Below are positions 8,809 through 22,926 of a DNA stretch of 24,000 nt, piece after piece. The notes under the pieces are model-generated. The model ran no database searches. It worked only from the letters and a program-made list of their open reading frames with translations, and was not told where the DNA came from. Positions within the stretch are counted from its first letter, which is position 1; each line of letters begins with the position of its first letter. Both the position numbers and the translations under genes were made by a program. Source of the DNA: Synechococcus sp. PCC 6312 (GTDB taxonomy: Bacteria > Cyanobacteriota > Cyanobacteriia > Thermosynechococcales > Thermosynechococcaceae); assembly GCF_000316685.1 (NCBI RefSeq), contig NC_019680.1:2837407-2861406 (forward strand), given 5' to 3'.

Positions 8809-10086
8809 TTAGAAGACATAGGCATAACCGTCTTTTTTGTGCATGGCTTTGCAGTATTTGTGGCTGATACCTGCCACTCTTCCAGTTGCCGTGGCTATGT
8901 CAAAACTGCCAGAGGCTCGACAAAGAACCCGACCCACATAGAAGCCGATTTTCTTGCCTGCCGTAACGGTCGCTCTGACAATATCGCCAGTTTGAAAGCC
9001 TTTATGAATCTGTACTCTGGACTTATGGCGAGTCGAAAAACCAAACTTGTCAGTCCCACACATCTGCCGTGTGCCGTGACCTTTGGCGGTAATGAGCAAC
9101 GGCTTTGAAGTCAGGACTTTGAGCGCATCAACCTGACCCACACAAGCGGCATCCAACCAATGAGCTTTGGGCAGGTCTAAGCGGGTGCGGTTGAATTTAG
9201 TTTGTCCACCCGTCCCTGTCGTGAGTGGCAACCCCGTCGCTTTCAGTGCATTGAATAACGCCCATCGGGTAGAGTTGACTGCTGCTGCATCCTTGAGAGG
9301 GGCTTTAGCCTTTCTCAGAATCCGTTGTAGTAACTCAGGCTTACCGAATAGGAAGTCTCGAATGTCCTGATTTCCCTTGCTTTGGTTACAGGCATGACAA
9401 GCCATTGTGAGGTTAGAAACTCGGTCAGTTCCGCCTCTCGACCTGGGGTGAATATGCTCTACTTCTAAAGGGACATCTTTAGTTCCACAGTAAGTACATT
9501 TTCTGCCCCACTTTTCTAGTAGATACTCTCTGACTTCGTAGCCTTGTAATTCCCCTTGTTGGTACTCAATGCCTGAGATTTCAGGATTTTGTAACTTCTG
9601 TAGGTCAAACCGTACCAACTCTTGAGCGATACTGCCAAGGGGAGCTAGATTTCTGAGCCGATTTACCCAGGTCAGCACCGTATCAACTCGATGTTTCAGG
9701 CTAGGAGCAAGCCAACCATCAGGGCGATTACGATTTAGAAAACGGGGCTGACGATAACGGGTTTTCCGATTTCGCCTCCCACGCCGTAATTGACGACGAG
9801 ACAGCAAGGCATCTTTAATCTGTTGCCCCCGGTGCTGCAATTCGGCTCCAAAGATGATTTTGTTGCCTTGTTTAATTGCAATTCCAGTAACTTTAGAACC
9901 GGGGTCTAATTTGAGTTCTAAGTCTTGCACGGGGACATCAGGATGAGCTTCTTTCAAGATGAGGGTAAATGGAAAACGACGATATACTGCCGCTTTTCCT
10001 TGGTTGAGTAGATGACGAGCCTTCCCAGGATGAACGGGATCAAGCGGTCGTTTTTGGGTATCGAGAACAAAGATAAAATTGGACAT
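8809..10086 (-). CDS. iscB: IscB RNA-guided nuclease (OMEGA system; RuvC-HNH-RuvC with an N-terminal PLMP domain), 425 aa
   Basis: PLMP-type N-terminus VLDTQKRPLDPVHPGKARHLL. RuvC-I LKLDPGSKVTGIAI. Arg-rich bridge helix RRQLRRGRRNRKTRYRQPRFLNR. HNH CTYCG…EVEHIHPRSRGG…CHACNQSKGN. RuvC-III HWLDAACVG. ATG at 10086 with a GGAG SD; the track's GTG at 10155 lies in the omega-RNA region. Confidence 0.93.
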   Translation of the reverse strand: MSNFIFVLDTQKRPLDPVHPGKARHLLNQGKAAVYRRFPFTLILKEAHPDVPVQDLELKLDPGSKVTGIAIKQGNKIIFGAELQHRGQQIKDALLSRRQLRRGRRNRKTRYRQPRFLNRNRPDGWLAPSLKHRVDTVLTWVNRLRNLAPLGSIAQELVRFDLQKLQNPEISGIEYQQGELQGYEVREYLLEKWGRKCTYCGTKDVPLEVEHIHPRSRGGTDRVSNLTMACHACNQSKGNQDIRDFLFGKPELLQRILRKAKAPLKDAAAVNSTRWALFNALKATGLPLTTGTGGQTKFNRTRLDLPKAHWLDAACVGQVDALKVLTSKPLLITAKGHGTRQMCGTDKFGFSTRHKSRVQIHKGFQTGDIVRATVTAGKKIGFYVGRVLCRASGSFDIATATGRVAGISHKYCKAMHKKDGYAYVF

Positions 10087-10340
10087 TGAAAGTCTCCGTA
10101 AAACGGGTAATGTGTTCCTCGCCAATGTTTTTAAGGCTTGTTTGGCTAACGACACTGCTTTACCCCTCGTAAGGCTGTTTAATCGCTAACGACAGAGCTA
10201 CAAACTGGAAAGCATTTGTAGGTGTCATGACCTTAAAAACGTAGTCAGTCAAGACTTAGGCTGGTCAACTAACTGAAGCTAGAGGCATGAAGCCCCATTA
10301 CTTCAGTGCGGGGTGCTGACTCAGACTGAAAGACCGTAGC
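10087..10340 (-). ncRNA. Putative omega-RNA (HEARO-type) scaffold of the IscB element; 5' end and guide not resolved
   Basis: Position only. IscB omega-RNAs are encoded directly 5' of, and overlapping, the iscB start. The region is ORF-poor with local hairpins (for example CTTCAGT…ACTGAAG at about 10272-10310). I could not verify the consensus structure by eye. Confidence 0.55.
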
Positions 10341-11086: not shown

Positions 11087-11686
11087 TCAGCGGTTCATTC
11101 TACGGAAGTCCCAAGGTTTTATCTGGTCTGACTTCCAGACACCAACGCCTTCTTTTCGGGCTTCTTGTTCGGCTTGATCAACTTTGGCAAAACTAGGGCA
11201 GTTATTAGCGAACTTGCGGTAAGCGTAGGCCATGCCTTTGCGGGTCATGGTTTCTTGGACAAGGGTATTGCCCGTCCAGACTTCAGCGACCTTACGGCCA
11301 TAGCGGTCAGTGTTGGTAATGCGAAGGTCAACACGGTAGTCAGCTTTTTTTAAGATATTGCGGAGTGTATTACGGGATGCTTCGCCCAAGGGTTGTTTAA
11401 GTTCTGGTGCGTCAATACAGGCGAAGCGGACTCGGATTTCTTCGTTGCCATTGGTGGCTCGGATGGTATCGCCATCATGGATAGAGCGTTGAACAACTTG
11501 CCATTCGGTTAGTCCAGTTCTGGTTTGGGTGGGTGTTCCGATTTCGTTGACAACGGCTTCACGTTCGGATGGACTAATCATACGTCCACTAGTTGTTCTT
11601 GGATTGAGGGCTTCAATCTCGGACATTGGGACAGCTTGCGATACGCATCCGGTTAGGAAAATTGCTAGGAGTGGCCAATAACGCAT
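11087..11686 (-). CDS. Secreted thermonuclease (staphylococcal nuclease/SNc fold) lipoprotein, 199 aa
   Basis: Lipobox LTGC in MRYWPLLAIFLTGCVSQ. SNase core …DGDTIRA…IRVRFACIDAPE…GEAS…RYGRKVAEVW…. Confidence 0.88.
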   Translation of the reverse strand: MRYWPLLAIFLTGCVSQAVPMSEIEALNPRTTSGRMISPSEREAVVNEIGTPTQTRTGLTEWQVVQRSIHDGDTIRATNGNEEIRVRFACIDAPELKQPLGEASRNTLRNILKKADYRVDLRITNTDRYGRKVAEVWTGNTLVQETMTRKGMAYAYRKFANNCPSFAKVDQAEQEARKEGVGVWKSDQIKPWDFRRMNR

Positions 11687-11784: not shown

Positions 11785-12450
11785 ATGCAGCGACTGATGG
11801 TAGCTCTGTTAGCGGTCATGGCCATGGCCATGACCGCTGGCGAAGTATTTGCAAATCCGTTCAAGATTCCCAATTCTACGGGTGATCGGGTAACGTTTCG
11901 GATGGATGGTTTAACGCCTGGTTCTGAGATTCAGGTCGGTGCCGGGGATACGAAAGCGAAACTTACCGCTTATACGATCAACAACTACGGGCGGATTAGT
12001 CCCCCGGCTGGTGCGACCAAGGTACGGAAATGGGGCGATACAACTTGGATCAACCTATCCAGTGCGACCGATCTGACTGATTCGGTCAAGGTTGCAACCG
12101 TTCAAGGTCAGCGTCAGTTTGCGCCTAAAGTGGCGGGTCAAAACTTACCGACTATCCCTTCCTTTATCAAACTTGGTACGGCGTTTTACTGGAATCCTGG
12201 CACTACGCTTCCAACTGATGGAATCTTCATTGAGTTTGATGTTCCGGTACAGCGTGTTGCGAAAGTTAATGCGTGTGGCCAGCTTTCAATCTCGGTTAGT
12301 TCGGTGAACGGCAGTGTCAATTACGTTCCTGCTGTGACGGTAAACGGAACAAGTTATACGATTGCAAGCCTTCCGGTCGGAAATCCGGCTAACTTATCTC
12401 GTTGCGTCAAGTACGGCGAGTCCACTTACGTCCGGTACGTTCCGCAGTAG
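11785..12450 (+). CDS. Secreted protein, paralog 1 of a four-member tandem family (221 aa)
   Basis: Signal peptide MQRLMVALLAVMAMAMTAGEVFA|NP. Family motifs NACGQLS…C.KYGESTYVRYVPQ. Confidence 0.85.
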   Translation: MQRLMVALLAVMAMAMTAGEVFANPFKIPNSTGDRVTFRMDGLTPGSEIQVGAGDTKAKLTAYTINNYGRISPPAGATKVRKWGDTTWINLSSATDLTDSVKVATVQGQRQFAPKVAGQNLPTIPSFIKLGTAFYWNPGTTLPTDGIFIEFDVPVQRVAKVNACGQLSISVSSVNGSVNYVPAVTVNGTSYTIASLPVGNPANLSRCVKYGESTYVRYVPQ

Positions 12451-12458
12451 AGGTACTG

Positions 12459-13076
12459 ATGTTAAGACCTGTCCTATTGGCTTTGTTTTGGTTGTTGGGT
12501 GCGTTGCCTGTGGTAGCGAATCCGGTACGAGTGCCGAGTGCCAGTGGTAACTCGATGCGCGTCAGTTTTGAAGGCTTCAATCCAAACAGTGAGGTACAGG
12601 TCGGCGTTGGCCTACGGCGATACCGAGCATCGCTGTCTATTAAACAGGGTGGGATGTCTTTTTTCCGGTTCACGTCACCTGAAGGAGCGACAGCGGTTCG
12701 TGTGGTTGGCCAAGAGAACTGGACGGCCCTGAGCCTTATTTCAGATCAGACCGCAAACTTGCGGGTCACTGGTACTGGTGAACAGCGTCAGTTTCTGGCG
12801 AAGAATCCGAAGGATTTTTGGTCAACCTTTGTTCCTTCTTTCAACGGGTATATGAAGGTGGGTCGGTCTTTCTTTTATCGGGGCAATGGAGACTCAATCA
12901 TGTTTGAGTTCAATGTCCAGGCTTACCGATTAGCAAAGGCGGATGCGTGTGGGCGAATTTCGCTGCTCTATCCGGTATCGGGTTCACGGGCCATCTCATC
13001 GGTCACGGTTGGCCAAACCTTTTACAGGCTTGACAGCGTTCCGACTGCCAGCAGATTGCCTGAATGTTCTCAATAG
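12459..13076 (+). CDS. Secreted protein, paralog 2 (205 aa from ATG 12459)
   Basis: GAGG SD precedes ATG 12459. Signal peptide MLRPVLLALFWLLGALPVVA|NP. DACGRIS…PECSQ. The track start at 12402 overlaps paralog 1. Confidence 0.8.
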   Translation: MLRPVLLALFWLLGALPVVANPVRVPSASGNSMRVSFEGFNPNSEVQVGVGLRRYRASLSIKQGGMSFFRFTSPEGATAVRVVGQENWTALSLISDQTANLRVTGTGEQRQFLAKNPKDFWSTFVPSFNGYMKVGRSFFYRGNGDSIMFEFNVQAYRLAKADACGRISLLYPVSGSRAISSVTVGQTFYRLDSVPTASRLPECSQ

Positions 13077-13095
13077 TTTTTCTTAGGAGTTGATG

Positions 13096-13824
13096 ATGTT
13101 TAATCGTATTTTTGTCCTTACTGCATTGCTCAGTCTTTTACCGACTGCGGTTTTTGCGGCTCCGACTAAGTTTACGAATCCTACAACCAACCGTGCCGAG
13201 GTAAATATCACTGGTTTTACGGCTGGTCAGGAAGTACCTATCGAATTTCAGAGTGTGACTAAATCGGTAAAAGCGAGTTGCCTGATTGGGTCGGATCGGT
13301 ATGCCTTGGTTTCCAGCGATGTTGCGGCCGAGATTAACCAGCCCTTTGAAGCCTTTGCTACTGCGGGTGGTACCCCTGCCATCAAAGTGAATGGTGGTGA
13401 GAATATTTGGGGTTCTGAGGAAGGTATGACCAATGGCCGTTGTGCCTTTGTTAACGGTACTCGCGTGTTCGTTGCCCCCAACGCACAGGGACAGGCTGTA
13501 CCTGTGACTGGAAACTACGGCCCTTTATTTGTTACCTCAACGGTGAATGCTGAAGGTAATGTAACGGGTAAGAGTTCCCTTTGGGTACGCGTTCCTACCT
13601 GGGATGCAGTACCAGTCCAAATCGTTGGTGGGAATACACAGAAGAAATACAAGGCGAATAGCTGTGGCATCGTCCGGTTTGCAGAAACTGAGACTGCTCC
13701 TTTAGCTCCTACCTTCAAAGTTGGTTCTACCATTTACACCGTTGCTAACTTAAGCACTGCTTACCCGCCCAAGTGCTATAAGACTGGCGAGACTTCTTAC
13801 ACTTTGTTTGTTCCGGCTCAGTAA
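13096..13824 (+). CDS. Secreted protein, paralog 3 (about 242 aa; start at 13093 or 13096)
   Basis: AGGAG SD at 13085-13089. Signal peptide MFNRIFVLTALLSLLPTAVFA|AP. C-terminus NSCGIVRFAETE…PPKCYKTGETSYTLFVPAQ. Confidence 0.88.
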   Translation: MFNRIFVLTALLSLLPTAVFAAPTKFTNPTTNRAEVNITGFTAGQEVPIEFQSVTKSVKASCLIGSDRYALVSSDVAAEINQPFEAFATAGGTPAIKVNGGENIWGSEEGMTNGRCAFVNGTRVFVAPNAQGQAVPVTGNYGPLFVTSTVNAEGNVTGKSSLWVRVPTWDAVPVQIVGGNTQKKYKANSCGIVRFAETETAPLAPTFKVGSTIYTVANLSTAYPPKCYKTGETSYTLFVPAQ

Positions 13825-13840
13825 TAGTTGTGATCTCACT

Positions 13841-13866
13841 GCGGCCTAGCTATAGGCCGCTTTTTT
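13841..13866 (+). terminator. Intrinsic terminator (plus strand)
   Basis: GCGGCCTA-GCTA-TAGGCCGC followed by T6. Confidence 0.85.
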
Positions 13867-13880
13867 GTGTAGGTGAACCT

Positions 13881-14627
13881 ATGCTTAAGACTCTATCCCT
13901 TTCACTTTTCTGGGTTTTTCTTCCATTGGTGGCATTAGCCCAACCGACTAAGTTTATGAATCCCACGACTAATCGGTCTGAGGTGAATATTACTGGATTC
14001 AGTCCAGGGCAGGAAGTGACTGTTGAGCTTCAGGGCGTAACCAAGACGGTTCGTGGTTCTTGTTCGGTTGGCAGTGACATTTACGCTTTACTTTCTAGCG
14101 ATGGGATTGGTGAGTTTCAGGAGCCTTTTAATGCCTATCTTGCGGCTACTGGCAATCAACCGGAGATTCGTCGTGGTGGTGTGAACCTTGGCAATCTGCT
14201 TGATGTTGAACCTATTTATAACGGTCGGTGTTCCTTTGTGAATGGGGCCAGGGTTTTGATGGGTGTTTATGGAACTGAGCGGATGACTGTTATTCCTCAG
14301 TCACAGATCAATGGTGTTGATCTACTGATGTTTACACCTGTTGACCAGAATGATAATCCGGTTCCTGGTAGTAAGCGGCAGCTTTGGGTTCGTGTACCGA
14401 ATTGGGAGCTAACTCCGATTCAAATTGTTGGTGGTTTTCTGGAGCGGAAGTACAAGGCGAATAACTGTGGCATTGTCCGATTTGCTGAAACAGCTACATC
14501 ACCTTTGCCTGAGACATTCAAGCTTGCTTCTACGGTGTATCAGGTTTCCAACTTATCCACTGCTTACCCGCCCAAGTGCTATAAGACGGGCGAGACTTCT
14601 TACACCCTGTTTGTTCCTGCTAACTGA
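13881..14627 (+). CDS. Secreted protein, paralog 4 (248 aa from ATG 13881)
   Basis: Signal peptide MLKTLSLSLFWVFLPLVALA|QP. The N- and C-terminal thirds are near-identical to paralog 3 and the centre is divergent. The track start at 13830 spans the terminator. Confidence 0.88.
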   Translation: MLKTLSLSLFWVFLPLVALAQPTKFMNPTTNRSEVNITGFSPGQEVTVELQGVTKTVRGSCSVGSDIYALLSSDGIGEFQEPFNAYLAATGNQPEIRRGGVNLGNLLDVEPIYNGRCSFVNGARVLMGVYGTERMTVIPQSQINGVDLLMFTPVDQNDNPVPGSKRQLWVRVPNWELTPIQIVGGFLERKYKANNCGIVRFAETATSPLPETFKLASTVYQVSNLSTAYPPKCYKTGETSYTLFVPAN

Positions 14628-15919: not shown

Positions 15920-16279
15920 TTACCTACCTTGCTCAAGGTCTTCGGAAACGATAGATGCAACCGACTCGGTGCTGAGTGTGACGGGTTGCTTTGATGCGTG
16001 GGTGTAGATGGAGTTGTACTCACCCTTTTCGCCTGAGTAATTCAAACATAGTTTATAGCCGTGTTTGGCCAGCTTGCTTTTGGCTAACTGGAACAGGATG
16101 GAACTAAGGGTATCCTTATTTAGCCAGAGGACTTCATGGCTGGTTGGATTTAAGAACCGCGTCCCGTAGTTGAGTCCTTTGTTTTTATCTCCACTCATGA
16201 CGGTGCAAATATGCTTGTATCCCTCAGCAATCAGACCTTTCCTTGCTTTCTCAAAGTTTTCACGGGTTGGTTGAATCAT
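15920..16279 (-). CDS. Hypothetical protein (119 aa)
   Basis: ORF track. The junction-motif variant CCGTAGGAC (16312) lies upstream. Confidence 0.7.
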   Translation of the reverse strand: MIQPTRENFEKARKGLIAEGYKHICTVMSGDKNKGLNYGTRFLNPTSHEVLWLNKDTLSSILFQLAKSKLAKHGYKLCLNYSGEKGEYNSIYTHASKQPVTLSTESVASIVSEDLEQGR

Positions 16280-16338: not shown

Positions 16339-17583
16339 TTATAGTGCTTCTTCAGCCGGTCGCAGTTGAGCATCTGGGTTCAGTTGATTTTCACCAGTGG
16401 TAAGGATTTTGATTTGCTCTAAGTTTTTACGCATAGCGGCCCAGGCTTTGAAGGCATTGCTGGTGTATTGGTCGGCTTGGTTGACACGGCTGAGGTATTG
16501 ATCAGTTGACCCTGCGCCGTAGCGATAGGTAACTTCGTAGAGCTTGAGCCGTGTTTGCTCACGGCGAGCGAGTTCCTGGGTTGCTTGAAACTCTCGTTTG
16601 AACTGGTCGAAAGCAAGAACATCGAGCGTCACCTTATCTCGGATACGACCGGCCAGTTCTGCTCGGTTGCGTTGCAGTTCAGCGACTTTGATTTGGAGGT
16701 CGCCAATGGCGAGGCTGCGGGTAGCAGCGGCTTGTGAGCCACCAAATAAGTTAGTGATGAGTGGGATACCGATGAGGCTGAGAGCTTCCGCAATCCCTGT
16801 GCCGGTAAACAGACGGCCAATCTTATCGAAGGGCGATTCAGCGGTTGGCCCTGATGTGGTGACGGTTGTTTGTCGTCCGGTGAATGGGTCGGTGACGACC
16901 TGGGTGGTACCGAGTCTGGCACTTGGCCCAGCATCAAAGCTGAGATAACTCTGAAGTGCAGGGGTAAAGACCTCTAAGTTAACGAGCTTCTGGTTATTGC
17001 TCTGTGCTTCTTGGATGCGAGTATTGGCTTCTTCAATCCGGGCATCTACTTCCTTCAGGATTGGAGAGCGAGCAATCGCTAACTCTTGCAGCCGCTTTAC
17101 ACATTCCTGGGTACTGTCCAGGCAAGGAAGGCCGCCGAGTATGCCCTGCCATAGGTCGTTATTGAACTGAAACCGAAGCACTTCCTCCATGCTGGCAGCG
17201 GTTTGTCCGCCCTGAAATGGATTTTCAGGCAGTCGTGGCGCAGCGACTGGCGTTCTGGCTGGTATGGTTCCGCCACTTGGCATGGTTGTTGTACTTGGCC
17301 TCACACCACTTGGGACGGGAATGTTAACCGGCCGTGTGCTTGGTTGGGCTGGTCTGGTTGTTGACCCTGGACTGGTTGGGGTGGGGGGTGGGGATTCTGG
17401 CTCATCAAGGGTGGGTGGTGCGACTTCGCCACCACCGCCATCATCATCGGTTGTGATGACTGCTGGTTCTTCAGCTTCAGCGGGTTGGCTATTGGGCTGT
17501 GCCTTGGATGTCAAGGGTAAGCTCAACACGAATGTTAGTATCAGACTGCTCAAGCCAACGGATACGAGTGACTTTACCTGCAT
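16339..17583 (-). CDS. Secreted TolC/OEP-like coiled-coil protein with a Pro/Thr-rich linker (414 aa from ATG 17583)
   Basis: Signal peptide MQVKSLVSVGLSSLILTFVLSLPLTSKA|QP. Two OEP-like helical repeats (…ARSPILKEVDARIEEANTRIQEAQ… and …GAGSTDQYLSRVNQADQYTSNAFKAW…). The family assignment is by eye and tentative. Confidence 0.7.
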   Translation of the reverse strand: MQVKSLVSVGLSSLILTFVLSLPLTSKAQPNSQPAEAEEPAVITTDDDGGGGEVAPPTLDEPESPPPTPTSPGSTTRPAQPSTRPVNIPVPSGVRPSTTTMPSGGTIPARTPVAAPRLPENPFQGGQTAASMEEVLRFQFNNDLWQGILGGLPCLDSTQECVKRLQELAIARSPILKEVDARIEEANTRIQEAQSNNQKLVNLEVFTPALQSYLSFDAGPSARLGTTQVVTDPFTGRQTTVTTSGPTAESPFDKIGRLFTGTGIAEALSLIGIPLITNLFGGSQAAATRSLAIGDLQIKVAELQRNRAELAGRIRDKVTLDVLAFDQFKREFQATQELARREQTRLKLYEVTYRYGAGSTDQYLSRVNQADQYTSNAFKAWAAMRKNLEQIKILTTGENQLNPDAQLRPAEEAL

Positions 17584-18439
17584 AGGGACTCCTGACAGTG
17601 GATAGGGATTGTAATTGACTTTCGATCTGGTCTTTCTGGGTTTGCAGTTGGGCAAGTTGGAACGTCTGTTCCTGAACCGCACGGTCTGCATCTATTTGGG
17701 ATTGTTGGGATTGGGCTTGGAGCTTGGCCAGTTCTAACTGGTGCTGGTACTCGGTGTATTGGCGTTGCTGTTGCGCTCTGACTAACTTAGCGTTGGCCAT
17801 ACTGACCGCAGCGACTTTGTTGTTGACCATTTCCTTGGCAATTTCGACCTGTCGCTGCTCATGCTCTAAGACTGGTGGTGGAACTTCGCCTCCCATTGTT
17901 TGTAGAACGCCCATTTTCCGTTGTTGCTGGTTAAGAGCTTCCTGGGCTTGGTTTAGTTCGAGTTGCGCTCTTTGAACATCTGCTTGCTCTGATAGGTAGT
18001 CGGGGGATGGTAGTTGCCGGATTGTCATGGGTTGGGGTCGGTTTACCTGTCGGGCTTGCATCCGGTTAATTTGGACGGCCAGTTGCTGCTTCCGGTAGGT
18101 GAGTACCTCCTTGGCCTTGGCCCGATCAGCGAGGATTTGATTTCGTTGGATCGTGTCGCCCTGCCGCACCTTGAGGTCGCTTGGGTCAGTGATGGAGAGT
18201 TGGATTTTGAACCGCTTTGGGTTCTCGGTTCGTGTTCCCTGTGGTTCCGTTCCTGGGTCTATTGGTTCCGTTGTGTCTGTCGGGGGTTCGTCCATATCTT
18301 CATCTGCTGATTGAGCGATGGAGATATTAGGGATGATGATCGTATGGCTCATCACGAATAGGGTGGCCGAGATTGCACCGATGGCAACTAAGCCATTCAC
18401 AATTTGACCGAGGGTAATTTTGGCAATGAACTTTAGCAT
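17489..18439 (-). CDS. HlyD-like membrane-fusion / periplasmic adaptor protein (316 aa)
   Basis: N-terminal TM segment. Lipoyl-like half-motifs LKVRQGDTIQRNQILA and SPYAGKVTRI flank a long Gln-rich coiled coil. Confidence 0.8.
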   Translation of the reverse strand: MLKFIAKITLGQIVNGLVAIGAISATLFVMSHTIIIPNISIAQSADEDMDEPPTDTTEPIDPGTEPQGTRTENPKRFKIQLSITDPSDLKVRQGDTIQRNQILADRAKAKEVLTYRKQQLAVQINRMQARQVNRPQPMTIRQLPSPDYLSEQADVQRAQLELNQAQEALNQQQRKMGVLQTMGGEVPPPVLEHEQRQVEIAKEMVNNKVAAVSMANAKLVRAQQQRQYTEYQHQLELAKLQAQSQQSQIDADRAVQEQTFQLAQLQTQKDQIESQLQSLSTVRSPYAGKVTRIRWLEQSDTNIRVELTLDIQGTAQ

Positions 18440-18442
18440 GGT

Positions 18443-19570
18443 TTACTCTGCCAATGGTAAGAGAGTGGGTTCGATTGGGATAACGTCATGGGAATGTTGC
18501 TCTGCCCGTTGGTAGTAAGGAATAATGTCGGTCTGTTTCGCATCATTCCCAAAGCGGACAAGGGCTTGCAGGGGCTTGAGGGCTGAGACTCTCGTAGCGG
18601 CAAAGCGAAACTTTTTGGCTACCTTCTCAACCTCGACCTGATCCACAGGCAAGACAATCTTGGTGGCTGTATTACTGAGAACGTCTGGGCTAAGGTGACG
18701 CTCCGACTGACTAGCTACGACAAGATTCAGGCCGTACTTACGCCCGTCACAGACAATCCGATCCAGGGCAGGAGACTTACTGAGTTCCTTGGCTTCATCA
18801 ATGAAGATGAATGTTCTAGGGGTAGCAGCTTCACCATAGAGGCGATGGTTATCCATCAGTTGCTTGGCCAGACTTTCGGCGGCAATCGCCCCGATTTCTG
18901 GGGGTAGTTTCTGCATATCTACCCGAATGAGTGGATGGTTAAATGGCATATTAGTCCGATTGAAAATGCCATAAGTGAAGGTAGCCGCTAACTTTAGCTT
19001 CAGCTTCTGCGACTCTTTGCAACCATCCCTGCAGCGTTGCTCCAGTTCGTTTTGGACATGGCTGAAGTTGGGTGGTTCATTCCGCCAGGTTTCGACACTT
19101 TTGATTCCGAATCGGGCATAGAGTTCCCCTAGAACATCAAGGATTAGACCTTCCTGGTTTGGGCCAATCTGTAGGTTACGTTTCAGGATTTGACCGACCG
19201 TAATAGCTTGGATTTTAGGGCCGCCGCCTTCCGGGTCAAGGTTGAGCATCAGTGGGTTAATGCCGTACTCACTGTTGGCATGGAGCGGGATATGTTTCTC
19301 ATGGGGTAGGTACTGGTCGCCATGAAAATCAACAATGATGATTTGGCATTCTTGCTTTTTGAAAAGCTCCCAAGCGATTGCTTTGAGCGTCTGCGTTTTG
19401 CCACTGCCACTGGCTCCAATAATTGCAACATGGCCATTGGGTAAGTCGTTGTAGTTCCAGTGGGTGTTTGTACCCAAATGGATGCCATTGCTATTGAGGG
19501 TTGTCACTGATGATGTTGACGTTTTTTGAAAGGGGACTAAGCGTGGGCTTGGCAAAGTACGGGGGGGCAT
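18443..19570 (-). CDS. HerA/FtsK-superfamily (DUF87-like) P-loop ATPase (375 aa)
   Basis: Walker A GASGSGKT. Walker B FIFIDEAKEL. …GRKYGLNLVVASQ… is typical of HerA/DUF87 ATPases. No TM segment. Confidence 0.85.
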   Translation of the reverse strand: MPPRTLPSPRLVPFQKTSTSSVTTLNSNGIHLGTNTHWNYNDLPNGHVAIIGASGSGKTQTLKAIAWELFKKQECQIIIVDFHGDQYLPHEKHIPLHANSEYGINPLMLNLDPEGGGPKIQAITVGQILKRNLQIGPNQEGLILDVLGELYARFGIKSVETWRNEPPNFSHVQNELEQRCRDGCKESQKLKLKLAATFTYGIFNRTNMPFNHPLIRVDMQKLPPEIGAIAAESLAKQLMDNHRLYGEAATPRTFIFIDEAKELSKSPALDRIVCDGRKYGLNLVVASQSERHLSPDVLSNTATKIVLPVDQVEVEKVAKKFRFAATRVSALKPLQALVRFGNDAKQTDIIPYYQRAEQHSHDVIPIEPTLLPLAE

Positions 19571-19572
19571 GG

Positions 19573-20610
19573 TTACTCCTTGGGAACAACAGTACGGATG
19601 AGAATATTGCCAGTTACATCTGCACTGATGTTGGCCACATCTTGCGGTCTAGCAGATTTCAATCTGAGGATGCCTGTGTTATCCCTGGTGGGTTGAAACG
19701 TGACCGGATTATATCGGTCGATCAACGGGATTAAGTTTAGGCTCTCGCTATCGGCGACTGCAACCGTCCCGGTCAGGTAAGTCCGTTTTGGATACTGGTC
19801 TAAGTTGAGGTCTGAGATAGGTTGTTCTTCCAGTTGAACTTGTTTGCTTTCACTGGTCACGGCTGGGCCACGTTGGAGCCGGATACTGCCGATTTTGATT
19901 TGGGCGTTTTGAGACCGTCCGGCTCGGTAAAGGATACCGCCCTCACTTTGTACCAGTAGGTCGCTACCCGTTAGAGCTTGGACAACTTCAAACTTGTCTC
20001 TGATATTTTGCTGAGTAGCTTCATCCTTCCCAGAAATTTCGACATAGAGGATATTGTTCTGTCCTTTGGAGTTGACTTCTTCGATCACGCCTTCCGGTAG
20101 TCCGAGGAACTGGTTAAAGGCCATGACGATACCGCCTTGGGAGTTGATGTTGAGGATCAGTATCCCGATGGACAAGATAAAGGCAAAGACAAATGCTTCG
20201 GCAACTGAGTTTGTTCCCAGGCGTAAGTGCGGGTTGCCTGGGATCACCAGTCTGGCTTGACTGGGATAGAAGGCGGCCACTCCAGTCTTAGTGAAGACAT
20301 CACCAAACCAGCCCATGAAGTATCCAATCATTAAGGCTGCATAGACTGTGCCGTTGATCAGAAGGACGGGGCTAAGGATGACGGCCACGATTGCGGTTGC
20401 GATAAAGCTATGAGTGACAGAGCGATGCGGGAACTGACGTTCTAAGGTCATGCTGATTGGGAACAAGATGCGACCTGTCAATGATTTACTGGTATCCACA
20501 TCAGGGAGTTGTGAAGCGACTGCTGCCGTTAACAGGATGATTGGGTTACTACTTCCCAATATCCCTGCGACTGATGTGGCAGCGAGTACGGCGTGAGTGA
20601 TGGACTTCAT
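19573..20610 (-). CDS. Membrane protein: N-terminal DUF457/YdjM-like metal-dependent hydrolase domain fused to an unknown beta-rich C-terminal domain (345 aa)
   Basis: …THAVLA…QLPDVD…RSVTHS…WFGDVFTKTG… with 4-5 hydrophobic segments. The last roughly 170 aa have no recognisable family. Confidence 0.75.
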   Translation of the reverse strand: MKSITHAVLAATSVAGILGSSNPIILLTAAVASQLPDVDTSKSLTGRILFPISMTLERQFPHRSVTHSFIATAIVAVILSPVLLINGTVYAALMIGYFMGWFGDVFTKTGVAAFYPSQARLVIPGNPHLRLGTNSVAEAFVFAFILSIGILILNINSQGGIVMAFNQFLGLPEGVIEEVNSKGQNNILYVEISGKDEATQQNIRDKFEVVQALTGSDLLVQSEGGILYRAGRSQNAQIKIGSIRLQRGPAVTSESKQVQLEEQPISDLNLDQYPKRTYLTGTVAVADSESLNLIPLIDRYNPVTFQPTRDNTGILRLKSARPQDVANISADVTGNILIRTVVPKE

Positions 20611-20837
20611 GACTCTGGTTCCATCTCCACGCAGATTAAGGTGGTGTAGCCTTCGTTTTTTCCATCAAACGACACAATGCCTTGGCCAGACATTTGCTCT
20701 ATGAGGGCATTCATCACGCCTTCGGCCACTGCCATTCGGTTTTTGAGGGGATCAGACGAGCCAACGGTGACAGTGAGTTTGACCGTTTCTACCGTTTCGA
20801 TGGTCGTTCCGGGTTTGTATTTGAGCATGAGGGTCAT
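20607..20837 (-). CDS. Small hypothetical protein (76 aa)
   Basis: ORF track. 4-nt overlaps with both neighbours. Confidence 0.65.
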   Translation of the reverse strand: MTLMLKYKPGTTIETVETVKLTVTVGSSDPLKNRMAVAEGVMNALIEQMSGQGIVSFDGKNEGYTTLICVEMEPES

Positions 20838-21061
20838 AGCACTTCTCCTAGATTCATGTCCCGGTAGGACTTATCGACAATCTTGGCGTTCCAGTTTTTG
20901 GTCTTGGCTTCTAGTTCTATCTCCCAAACTTTGAGGTAGGGGCGCGACAGCAGGGGCGCATTACCGCGTATTCGATAATATTTTTCAAGCAGTGTTTTGG
21001 TCAGTAGTTGTTTGTAAGACTCTGGTAGGTTGCTTCCTTGGCAGAACAGCACTGTTTCCAT
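20834..21061 (-). CDS. Small hypothetical protein (75 aa)
   Basis: ORF track. 4-nt overlap with the downstream gene. Confidence 0.65.
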   Translation of the reverse strand: METVLFCQGSNLPESYKQLLTKTLLEKYYRIRGNAPLLSRPYLKVWEIELEAKTKNWNAKIVDKSYRDMNLGEVL

Positions 21062-21064
21062 GAT

Positions 21065-22024
21065 TCATCGCCCCAAGTGTCTTGATTTTCTTGGCATAGC
21101 GGTCACAAGCAGTCTCACGACACCGACTGTAACGGTGAGGATGCCGCCCATGAGGTAAAGGCTGGTGCTATTAAAGCCAAGGCCGATGAAGCGGACAATG
21201 ACAAAGCACAGCATGACAGCTATCAGGAATGGAGTCCCGTCTATCCATTGCGTATGGTCGGGCGATAGGTCATCCAGACCGAGATATTCTTCCTTGACGA
21301 CTCGCTTGGCCAACATCGGATTACCGCCACATCGTTCTTGAAGTTCAGCGACCTTGGCAGGGTCTAAGTCAATGCCAAGGTCTTGGGCGGTTTCATACAT
21401 GATTTGCCGAATCCACTTATTTTCGAGCGGTGGCAGTTCGATTCGGGGTAGCCGAATGAAAATGTCTTTGGGCGGCGGGTGGGTGGCGAACAGGAGGATA
21501 TGCTGATTCTTCTTGTGTAACCGTTCAAGCCAGTACCGGAATGTGGCGGCTATTTTATGAGCGTCATCAAAGATGAGGAAGGCCAGGTTATCTTGCAACC
21601 ACTGAAGAACGGCATCCTGTAGTTCTTGGATGTTCATCCGTTTCCCTTCCAAGTTGTAGGTATCTATCCCGAGCGTTTCAGCGATTTCCATCATGTTGAC
21701 CCTGACGGTATTGGGGGTAATGAGGCAACAACGGAAGCCTTCATCGGTTAATTGCTTGTGGACACTTTCGGCTAGGTAGCTCTTTCCGACTCCAACTTCG
21801 CTGACGACCAGGAGGCTGCTGTCTGCTTTTAGTGACGCAACGATGTGATCGAAAATTGATCGTCTATACAGACGGCTAGGAAGGGATTCTTCTGATGTGA
21901 TATTTACGGCTCCAAGTGACTCGGACTCGCCCGTTACTTGGTCAACGGCGTAGGTATAGAGTCGCCTGGTACCGTCTTTGAGGTTTTTAATGTGTCGTCT
22001 GATAGATTTTGCCACTGCTAACAA
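21065..22024 (-). CDS. AAA+/P-loop ATPase with two C-terminal TM helices (319 aa; TTG start per track)
   Basis: Walker A SEVGVGKS. Walker B FLIFDDAHK. C-terminal hydrophobic FLIAVMLCFVIVRFIGLGF and LMGGILTVTVGVVRLLV. Confidence 0.8.
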   Translation of the reverse strand: MLAVAKSIRRHIKNLKDGTRRLYTYAVDQVTGESESLGAVNITSEESLPSRLYRRSIFDHIVASLKADSSLLVVSEVGVGKSYLAESVHKQLTDEGFRCCLITPNTVRVNMMEIAETLGIDTYNLEGKRMNIQELQDAVLQWLQDNLAFLIFDDAHKIAATFRYWLERLHKKNQHILLFATHPPPKDIFIRLPRIELPPLENKWIRQIMYETAQDLGIDLDPAKVAELQERCGGNPMLAKRVVKEEYLGLDDLSPDHTQWIDGTPFLIAVMLCFVIVRFIGLGFNSTSLYLMGGILTVTVGVVRLLVTAMPRKSRHLGR

Positions 22025-22643
22025 ACCTCTTAAATTCAGCGACCATAGAACTGGAGCAACTTTTCCCGGTTTGATTTTTAACGAAGGTTATGAGTTCGTC
22101 ATACTTGCGAAGCTTGTTGTGCTGCCAAGCGATGTAGAGGAGGCCAAAGACGGTGCGCCTACGGCGGAGGTCGCAGAGCTTTCTGTGGTTACAGTGGAAC
22201 TCAAAGGGTATGGGAGTCTCCTCGATGATGCGTTGCCGTTCTTGATAGGCCTCGTGTTTAGACTTGGGCTTGGGTCTGGGTTTAGGTTTAGATTTTTTGT
22301 CAGGCTTTTCGAGTTCGGTTGGGATAAAAGAGTGTTGGAGGAAGGGAAGCCACCAATGGGGGTTATGGGGCCGGTGTTGTTCTAATGTGGCTTGTGGTAG
22401 GAATCGAGCTTGAGGTTGTGGTTCTTTATCATCCCTTGCAGGCATGAGTTGGAGTTTAGCGGGTGGGAGAAGGGGGATGGGGTCATCACCAAAGGCCTTA
22501 ACGGCTTCCCAAGCGGGTTCGATAGTGGTTTGGATGAGGGTTTCTGCCTTATGTCGGATTGCAGTTCCCCACCGTTCGAGAGTATTAAGGGTAGATCGGT
22601 AAATCTGACCCAATGTAATCTGCTGCCAGGGCGTGTTGTTCAT
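21987..22643 (-). CDS. Hypothetical protein with a Lys/Pro-rich central linker (218 aa from ATG 22643)
   Basis: ORF track (TTG at 22658; ATG at 22643). Overlaps both neighbours (38 nt and about 59 nt). Confidence 0.65.
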   Translation of the reverse strand: MNNTPWQQITLGQIYRSTLNTLERWGTAIRHKAETLIQTTIEPAWEAVKAFGDDPIPLLPPAKLQLMPARDDKEPQPQARFLPQATLEQHRPHNPHWWLPFLQHSFIPTELEKPDKKSKPKPRPKPKSKHEAYQERQRIIEETPIPFEFHCNHRKLCDLRRRRTVFGLLYIAWQHNKLRKYDELITFVKNQTGKSCSSSMVAEFKRFVSSGKIYQTTH

Positions 22644-22926
22644 GCTTGTTCGCCTCAAAGATATGGATACCGATTTCGATAGTGCTTGCGAGTAGGAGGA
22701 TGATCCCGACGAGTTTGTAAAAGCGGGATTTGTTGATGATGAAAGATTTAATAATTCCAGACTGGACGAGGTTAGCGGTTTGGACTCTCACCTGGCTATA
22801 AGAAAGGTCTGTCATTTTGCAAAGGGTATTGCGATCACAGACCTCCTGATTTTCAAGAACGCTCAGGATTCGCTCTCGCGTCTGCCGCCCTTGACTGAGT
22901 TTCTTTTGATTGAGTTTTGTGAACAT
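22585..22926 (-). CDS. Winged-HTH (MarR/ArsR-like) protein with a C-terminal TM segment (113 aa); first gene of the operon
   Basis: RERILSVLENQEVCDRNTLCKMTDLSYSQVRVQTANLVQSGII is wHTH-like. It is followed by the hydrophobic FYKLVGIILLLASTIEIGI. Confidence 0.7.
   Translation of the reverse strand: MFTKLNQKKLSQGRQTRERILSVLENQEVCDRNTLCKMTDLSYSQVRVQTANLVQSGIIKSFIINKSRFYKLVGIILLLASTIEIGIHIFEANKHEQHALAADYIGSDLPIYP

Follow-up and report, generated by a model that had tools for sequence, protein, structure and literature searches.

The 24,000-nucleotide stretch of the Synechococcus sp. PCC 6312 genome (3.72 Mb, 2 contigs) analyzed here, referred to as the window, carries a conserved five-gene module with the order AAA–YdjM–HerA–HlyD–OMF. 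It encodes a HlyD-family periplasmic adaptor (membrane fusion protein, MFP) and a half-size TolC-like outer-membrane factor (OMF) together with a YdjM/DUF457 membrane hydrolase fusion, a membrane-anchored AAA+ ATPase and a soluble HerA/FtsK-type ATPase, but none of the ABC, RND or MFS transporters that pair with such conduits in classical exporters. By analogy with these families, we tentatively propose that the module is a dedicated envelope-spanning apparatus for the translocation of a macromolecule, most likely DNA, which would probably be exported.

A conserved five-gene module without a pump

The gene layout was taken from the open reading frame (ORF) listing of the window. Genes 2 to 5 of the module lie on the minus strand and are spaced by 2–3 nt or overlap: the HerA ORF begins 2 nt after the YdjM fusion, the adaptor follows 3 nt after HerA, and the 5' end of the OMF gene overlaps the 3' end of the adaptor gene by about 93 nt. 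A sequence-only reading of the window had described these four contiguous genes at the coordinates of Table 1, and the listing bears it out. It had further named a DUF457-like polytopic protein with an extra soluble domain, a soluble HerA/FtsK-superfamily ATPase and a periplasmic adaptor with a transmembrane (TM) anchor, all of which agree with the profile and structure comparisons presented below; profile searches upheld the HerA, HlyD and OEP assignments and moved none of them to an unrelated family. Its claim that HerA is the only energizer fails, as it missed the membrane-anchored AAA+ ATPase, the fifth conserved member of the operon.

Conservation was examined in a sample of 401 cyanobacterial genomes and in 80 metagenomic HerA loci. 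HerA was present in 20 of the cyanobacterial genomes (about 5%), with carriers that include Nostoc, S. elongatus and Cylindrospermopsis, and 18 of these 20 keep the full gene order. The possibility, raised in the sequence-only reading, that the genes keep company in this genome alone is thereby dismissed. At the metagenomic loci the YdjM fusion and HlyD nearly always adjoin HerA on its two sides, and all five genes were found at 24 of the 80, most absences falling at contig ends. Recurrence of the five-gene order in those 18 genomes and on dozens of metagenomic contigs is more than chance would produce. No relative of the module was detected in a scan of viral contigs. Many copies are plasmid-borne, in Nostocales, Chroococcales and S. 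elongatus, and the recurrent neighbors of the module encode ParA, CopG/RHH and tyrosine integrase proteins, which are typical of plasmid maintenance and mobility.

A Pfam search of all ORFs of at least 100 amino acids found no ABC, RND or MFS gene in the window, and across 25 genomic loci no such gene is a recurrent neighbor of the module, confirming the earlier observation that the adaptor and OMF are encoded without a conventional pump. The accompanying remark that no described system of this composition was known also stands: in the papers that could be searched, we came across no account of these genes as a set.

Table 1. Coordinates of the module genes and associated features in the window
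Feature	Position	Strand	Basis
Core gene 1: AAA+ ATPase (AAA_22/AAA_16), two C-terminal TM helices	21065..22024	-	Pfam, TM prediction
Core gene 2: polytopic YdjM/DUF457 membrane hydrolase with C-terminal TrmB-C/WYL-like beta domain, 345 aa	19573..20610	-	Pfam, AlphaFold2 (AF2), VIA
Core gene 3: soluble HerA/FtsK-clade ATPase without N-terminal HAS-barrel, 375 aa	18443..19570	-	Pfam, NCBIfam
Core gene 4: HlyD-family periplasmic adaptor (MFP), N-terminal TM anchor, coiled coil, 316 aa	17489..18439	-	NCBIfam
Core gene 5: TolC-like OMF with a single OEP repeat, 414 aa from Met 17583	16339..17583	-	Pfam OEP, AF2, Foldseek
g22585: small protein resembling winged helix-turn-helix (wHTH) proteins, C-terminal TM helix, possible regulator	22585..22926	-	Weak HTH matches
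g21987: 223-aa protein, upstream of AAA gene	21987..22658	-	No Pfam/PADLOC match
g15920: 119-aa protein, end of duplicated unit	15920..16279	-	Conserved in paralog copy
Insertion between AAA and YdjM genes, 455 nt, two small ORFs	20607..21061	-	ORF listing, locus comparison
Unit duplicated elsewhere in the genome	15935..22968	-	blastn of window against second locus

Two ATPases and a membrane hydrolase fusion

HerA/FtsK ATPases are hexameric DNA translocases. The module's member of this superfamily has no TM helix and matches the Pfam families DUF87, the HerA central domain (3.5e-11), and TrwB_AAD_bind (4.6e-11). Its best NCBIfam matches are to CedD, CedB, VirB4 and HerA, all below the cut-offs and those to VirB4 and CedB far below. 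Its nearest solved relatives are DptH, the ATPase of phosphorothioate (PT)-dependent restriction (profile E 1.8e-20), and HerA, Sir2-HerA and HerA-DUF4297, and not TrwB. The Walker A (GASGSGKT) and Walker B (FIDEAKE) motifs are invariant among homologs. In every homolog Walker A is located around residue 50, leaving no room for an N-terminal HAS-barrel, and no such domain was found on HerA. In several orthologs, such as that on a Gloeocapsa PCC 7428 plasmid, a GIY-YIG nuclease is inserted after about residue 166.

The second ATPase is a AAA+ protein whose start is uncertain (TTG at 22024 or GTG at 22015). Besides its own Pfam match to AAA_22 (1.5e-9), this family was matched by 20/20 homologs and AAA_16 by 19/20; the motifs are GExGSGKS for Walker A and DDAH for Walker B. 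The pair of C-terminal TM helices is kept in all 22 of the homologs compared for it. A complex prediction for HerA with the soluble region of the AAA+ protein (residues 1–205) scored 0.28 against a mark of 0.32, which counts neither for nor against contact between the two.

The gene between the two ATPases in the conserved order matches PF04307 (YdjM/DUF457; E 3e-22), which we take to be a family of metal-dependent membrane hydrolases. Residues 1–165 contain about 3 conserved hydrophobic segments or TM helices, and H6, D37, D39, H62 and H67 are invariant in the YdjM domain. In the AF2 model (pLDDT 85), residues 170–251 share the fold of the TrmB sugar-binding domain (VIA Z 12.7; rmsd 1.7 for 81 residues); WYL domains are the next-best match (VIA Z 5–6.4), and a further beta region lies beyond this TrmB-C/WYL-like domain (residues about 160–250). 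The WYL-like fold is known from DNA/RNA- and ligand-binding regulators. Residues 1–169 show a loose likeness to the Clostridium Zn-PLC alpha-toxin (VIA Z 5.2), a helical match that serves as a lead only.

An adaptor paired with a half-size outer-membrane factor

The adaptor was assigned by its NCBIfam match to NHLM_micro_HlyD (5.6e-7) and combines an N-terminal TM helix with lipoyl/barrel-sandwich domains and a coiled coil. Among its homologs (n = 18), the domains matched were Biotin_lipoyl_2 (10), Biotin_lipoyl (8) and RnfC_N (6).

The OMF, a divergent member of its kind, is encoded in an ORF that spans 16339–17691; the Met that begins the signal peptide is at 17583, though translation may start at 17691. 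A Sec signal peptide is followed by a disordered N-terminal region rich in P, S and T. Pfam OEP matches a single stretch of the protein (7e-4 alone, 3.5e-5 at best across homologs) and not the two repeats of a TolC-family OMF; a single stretch was likewise found in 12 of 19 homologs, and mature lengths are about 280–330 aa. The AF2 model (pLDDT 61) combines a long helix with a beta-hairpin and a long helical hairpin, corresponding to about half of a TolC protomer, and the top Foldseek matches are mostly TolC-family OMFs, though weak (E above 0.2). Thus, of the earlier description of a signal-peptide protein resembling OEP/TolC, the TolC-like OEP domain and the Sec signal stand, but identity with a full TolC was rejected because the protein has only one OEP repeat and is half-size. 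It is also distinct from the two canonical two-repeat TolC-family OMFs of this genome, HgdD-like candidates at C1:687771-689021 and 456224-457258, which could substitute for it.

Comparison with known systems

Several known systems share parts of the module. In type I secretion and tripartite efflux (HlyBD-TolC, DevBCA-HgdD, AcrAB-TolC), an MFP adaptor is likewise encoded together with a TolC-family OEP OMF; DevBCA-HgdD, for instance, exports heterocyst glycolipids. The module differs in that its energizers are HerA/FtsK and a membrane-tethered AAA+ ATPase, its inner-membrane partner is a YdjM–TrmB-C fusion and its OMF has a single OEP repeat, and the lack of an ABC, RND or MFS gene led us to reject a classical system of this kind. 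Among HerA translocases (archaeal HerA-NurA; Sir2-HerA, HerA-DUF4297 and DptH/DndH), the HerA/FtsK-clade ATPase likewise has intact Walker A and B motifs. The module's HerA, which in some orthologs carries the GIY-YIG nuclease, lacks the HAS-barrel and sits in an envelope operon with an MFP and an OMF; none of the module genes encodes a NurA, Sir2, DUF4297 or DndFG/DptFG effector partner (PADLOC/Pfam). HerA-NurA and Sir2-HerA were therefore rejected, given the missing barrel and effector.

Type IV coupling ATPases (VirD4/TrwB, VirB4) and those of the archaeal Ced DNA-import system (CedB/CedD), which transport DNA through membranes, belong to the same superfamily, as reflected in the TrwB_AAD_bind and CedD/CedB/VirB4 profile matches. 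In contrast to these, the module's ATPase has no TM anchor, and an MFP/OMF duct takes the place of the VirB core channel. There were no Pfam matches to VirB6/8/9/10 or to a relaxase in the window or among the recurrent neighbors, and type IV secretion or conjugation was rejected on that ground. The search for a CedA/VirB6-like channel and a pilin gene found neither, the membrane partner being a YdjM-family hydrolase, and Ced-type import was rejected for lack of CedA and a pilin.

Lastly, 'HerA/FtsK capture' with Orc/Cdc6-like AAA+ partners has been described in defense and mobile neighborhoods (PMC10853773). There too HerA/FtsK is paired with a second AAA+ protein in mobile contexts, but those neighborhoods carry restriction endonucleases and wHTH proteins, whereas the module carries the YdjM fusion, the MFP, the OMF and a AAA+ protein with C-terminal TM helices. 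The papers on MADS, on Ced and on the reappraisal of PT defense (PMC10853773) offer thematic parallels only.

A second copy and the flanking genes

The unit from g22585 to g15920, with the insertion, occurs a second time in the genome at C1:~1674.5-1681.5 kb (locus L010, 6529-13498), with about 75–80% nucleotide identity by blastn. HerA is a pseudogene in this copy, disrupted by a frameshift at about codon 80 and by an in-frame stop at about codon 298. The two small ORFs of the insertion (20834-21061 and 20607-20837) are translationally coupled; the insertion is common to both copies and absent from other genera. The same holds for g15920, which is 94% identical between the copies. Homologs of g22585, whose HTH matches are MarR/Csa3-like (PHROGs/PADLOC) and whose TM helix spans residues 69–92, are confined to close relatives (loci L001 and L003) and the paralog copy, and those of g21987 occur only there and in the same position. 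The GC content of the module (50.3%) is slightly above the genome mean (48.5%).

Several other genes of the window were also recorded. Four tandem paralogs on the plus strand (11785-12450, 12402-13076, 13090-13824 and 13830-14627) encode secreted proteins of about 220–265 aa that carry Sec signal peptides and have the motif NPTTNRxEVNITGF in common, and members of this family lie near the module in 13 loci. A staphylococcal-nuclease-like lipoprotein on the minus strand (11087-11686, lipobox LTGC), which matches C3a212 SNc+LTD in PADLOC, is found near the module in 9 loci. Farther away on the minus strand are an RRXRR-HNH protein (PF14239 plus HNH, 8809-10155) with PtuB-like HNH matches in PADLOC and a YspA/cpYpsA SLOG-family protein (PF10686, 2738-3106). 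YspA/cpYpsA SLOG proteins belong to a sensor-domain family found in conflict systems.

Discussion

The make-up of the module, the families of its domains, its conserved gene order, its link to plasmids and the lack of a pump are shown; how it would be assembled, what it would carry, in which direction and to what end are inferred. On the translocator reading, the passage through periplasm and outer membrane would be formed by the HlyD-type adaptor together with the half-size TolC-like OMF, an arrangement known from type I secretion and tripartite efflux. At the inner membrane and in the cytoplasm, the apparatus would consist of the YdjM fusion, the membrane-tethered AAA+ ATPase and the soluble HerA/FtsK-type ATPase, with no pump; HerA, having no N-terminal domain of its own, would presumably dock onto its membrane partners. 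Since HerA/FtsK proteins translocate DNA and some orthologous HerAs have a GIY-YIG nuclease inside them, DNA would be the likeliest cargo, and the TrwB_AAD 'DNA-binding domain' match and the WYL-like domain of the YdjM fusion, as domains of a DNA- or ligand-binding type, point the same way. DNA would most likely be exported through the TolC-like duct, with import as another possibility. Because the module is often plasmid-borne, one possible role would be to release DNA of the plasmid or the chromosome, which could then spread through natural transformation. A more specific and unlikely version is a plasmid-spread DNA-secretion machine in which a HerA hexamer and the AAA+ protein would pump DNA, sometimes nicked by the inserted GIY-YIG nuclease, via the YdjM assembly into the HlyD/half-TolC duct, to the benefit of competent neighbors.

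Several points weigh against a translocator of this kind. First, the module has no component that looks like a known inner-membrane DNA channel (VirB6, CedA or ComEC); with the YdjM domain, the number of TM helices is only about 3, and we know of no transport role for it. Second, hydropathy and charge fix neither the topology of the YdjM fusion nor the side on which its C-terminal domain lies. Third, the DNA cargo is suggested by family analogy and by a nuclease insertion that is present in some orthologs only. Lastly, some loci have no OMF, so that the module might do without the duct or borrow one. The pMAL plasmid of S. elongatus UTEX 3055, for example, carries AAA–YdjM–HerA–HlyD without an adjacent OMF (60401-65256), led by a 340-aa hypothetical protein; in some other loci the HlyD ORFs seem to include a fused domain that resembles this leader.

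Many of the same features bear on a second account, which we consider unlikely: a membrane-associated anti-phage or anti-plasmid defense complex in which HerA/FtsK and the AAA+ protein would act on invading DNA at the envelope. The inserted GIY-YIG nuclease would sometimes cut, the WYL/TrmB-C-like domain would sense a signal, and the MFP/OMF pair would have been co-opted as a scaffold or for the export of a product. HerA is indeed nearest to the defense ATPases DptH/DndH and Sir2-HerA, the AAA+ protein has AAA_16/nSTAND-like matches, and WYL domains occur in defense regulators such as CapW. The nuclease insertion, the mobile, plasmid-borne context and the captured HerA/FtsK with its Orc/Cdc6-like partners (PMC10853773) are in keeping with defense as well. 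The best PADLOC match of HerA is mad8 of MADS, but HerA alone matches that system, the mandatory mad6 and mad7 and the methyltransferase being absent from the module, and MADS was rejected. PADLOC gives no defense family for the YdjM, HlyD or OMF genes, and its matches among the neighbors were weak or isolated, so that the neighborhood is not a clear defense island and this context was down-weighted. Defense would also leave the MFP and OMF pair without explanation.

Secretion of a protein or peptide by a type I-like route, with an FtsK-type motor replacing the ABC transporter as EccC does in type VII secretion, seems improbable to us. It would account for the MFP and OMF, whose architecture is that of type I secretion, and in type VII systems protein export is indeed powered by ATPases of the FtsK/HerA family; the weak EccC matches of HerA correspond to these systems. 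However, the conserved neighbors of the module include no candidate substrate that lacks a Sec signal, the recurring secreted proteins there having Sec signals or lipoboxes, and both the HerA-clade signatures and the GIY-YIG insertion are indicative of DNA. Export of a lipid or small molecule, or modification of the envelope, is the least probable account: although the YdjM hydrolase, with its N-terminal resemblance to Zn-PLC alpha-toxin, might be an enzyme of the Zn-phospholipase-C type and make a product for the MFP/OMF with the ATPases in assembly or regulation, and cyanobacterial MFP/OMF systems export glycolipids (PMC8277102), the structural likeness is weak (Z about 5, for a helical fold), and no HerA/FtsK or AAA+ ATPase is known to power the transport of small molecules.

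All parts of the module come from known families, and an MFP–OMF conduit is of a known kind. What sets the module apart is its energizer and its half-size OMF, and it might represent a tripartite machine of a new class. To our knowledge, all tripartite MFP–OMF systems characterized so far are powered by an ABC, RND or MFS transporter, and a conserved family energized by HerA/FtsK and AAA+ ATPases would establish a new class of machines that span the envelope, with a single-repeat OMF as an unusual outer-membrane factor architecture. The genetically tractable carrier S. elongatus UTEX 3055, with its copy on pMAL, lets the question of cargo be addressed directly. If the cargo is DNA, the module would represent a way of secreting DNA in Gram-negative bacteria that differs from type IV secretion and is widespread on cyanobacterial plasmids, and, should the DNA-secretion machine prove true, it would join conjugation, transduction and vesicles as a fourth route of horizontal gene transfer.

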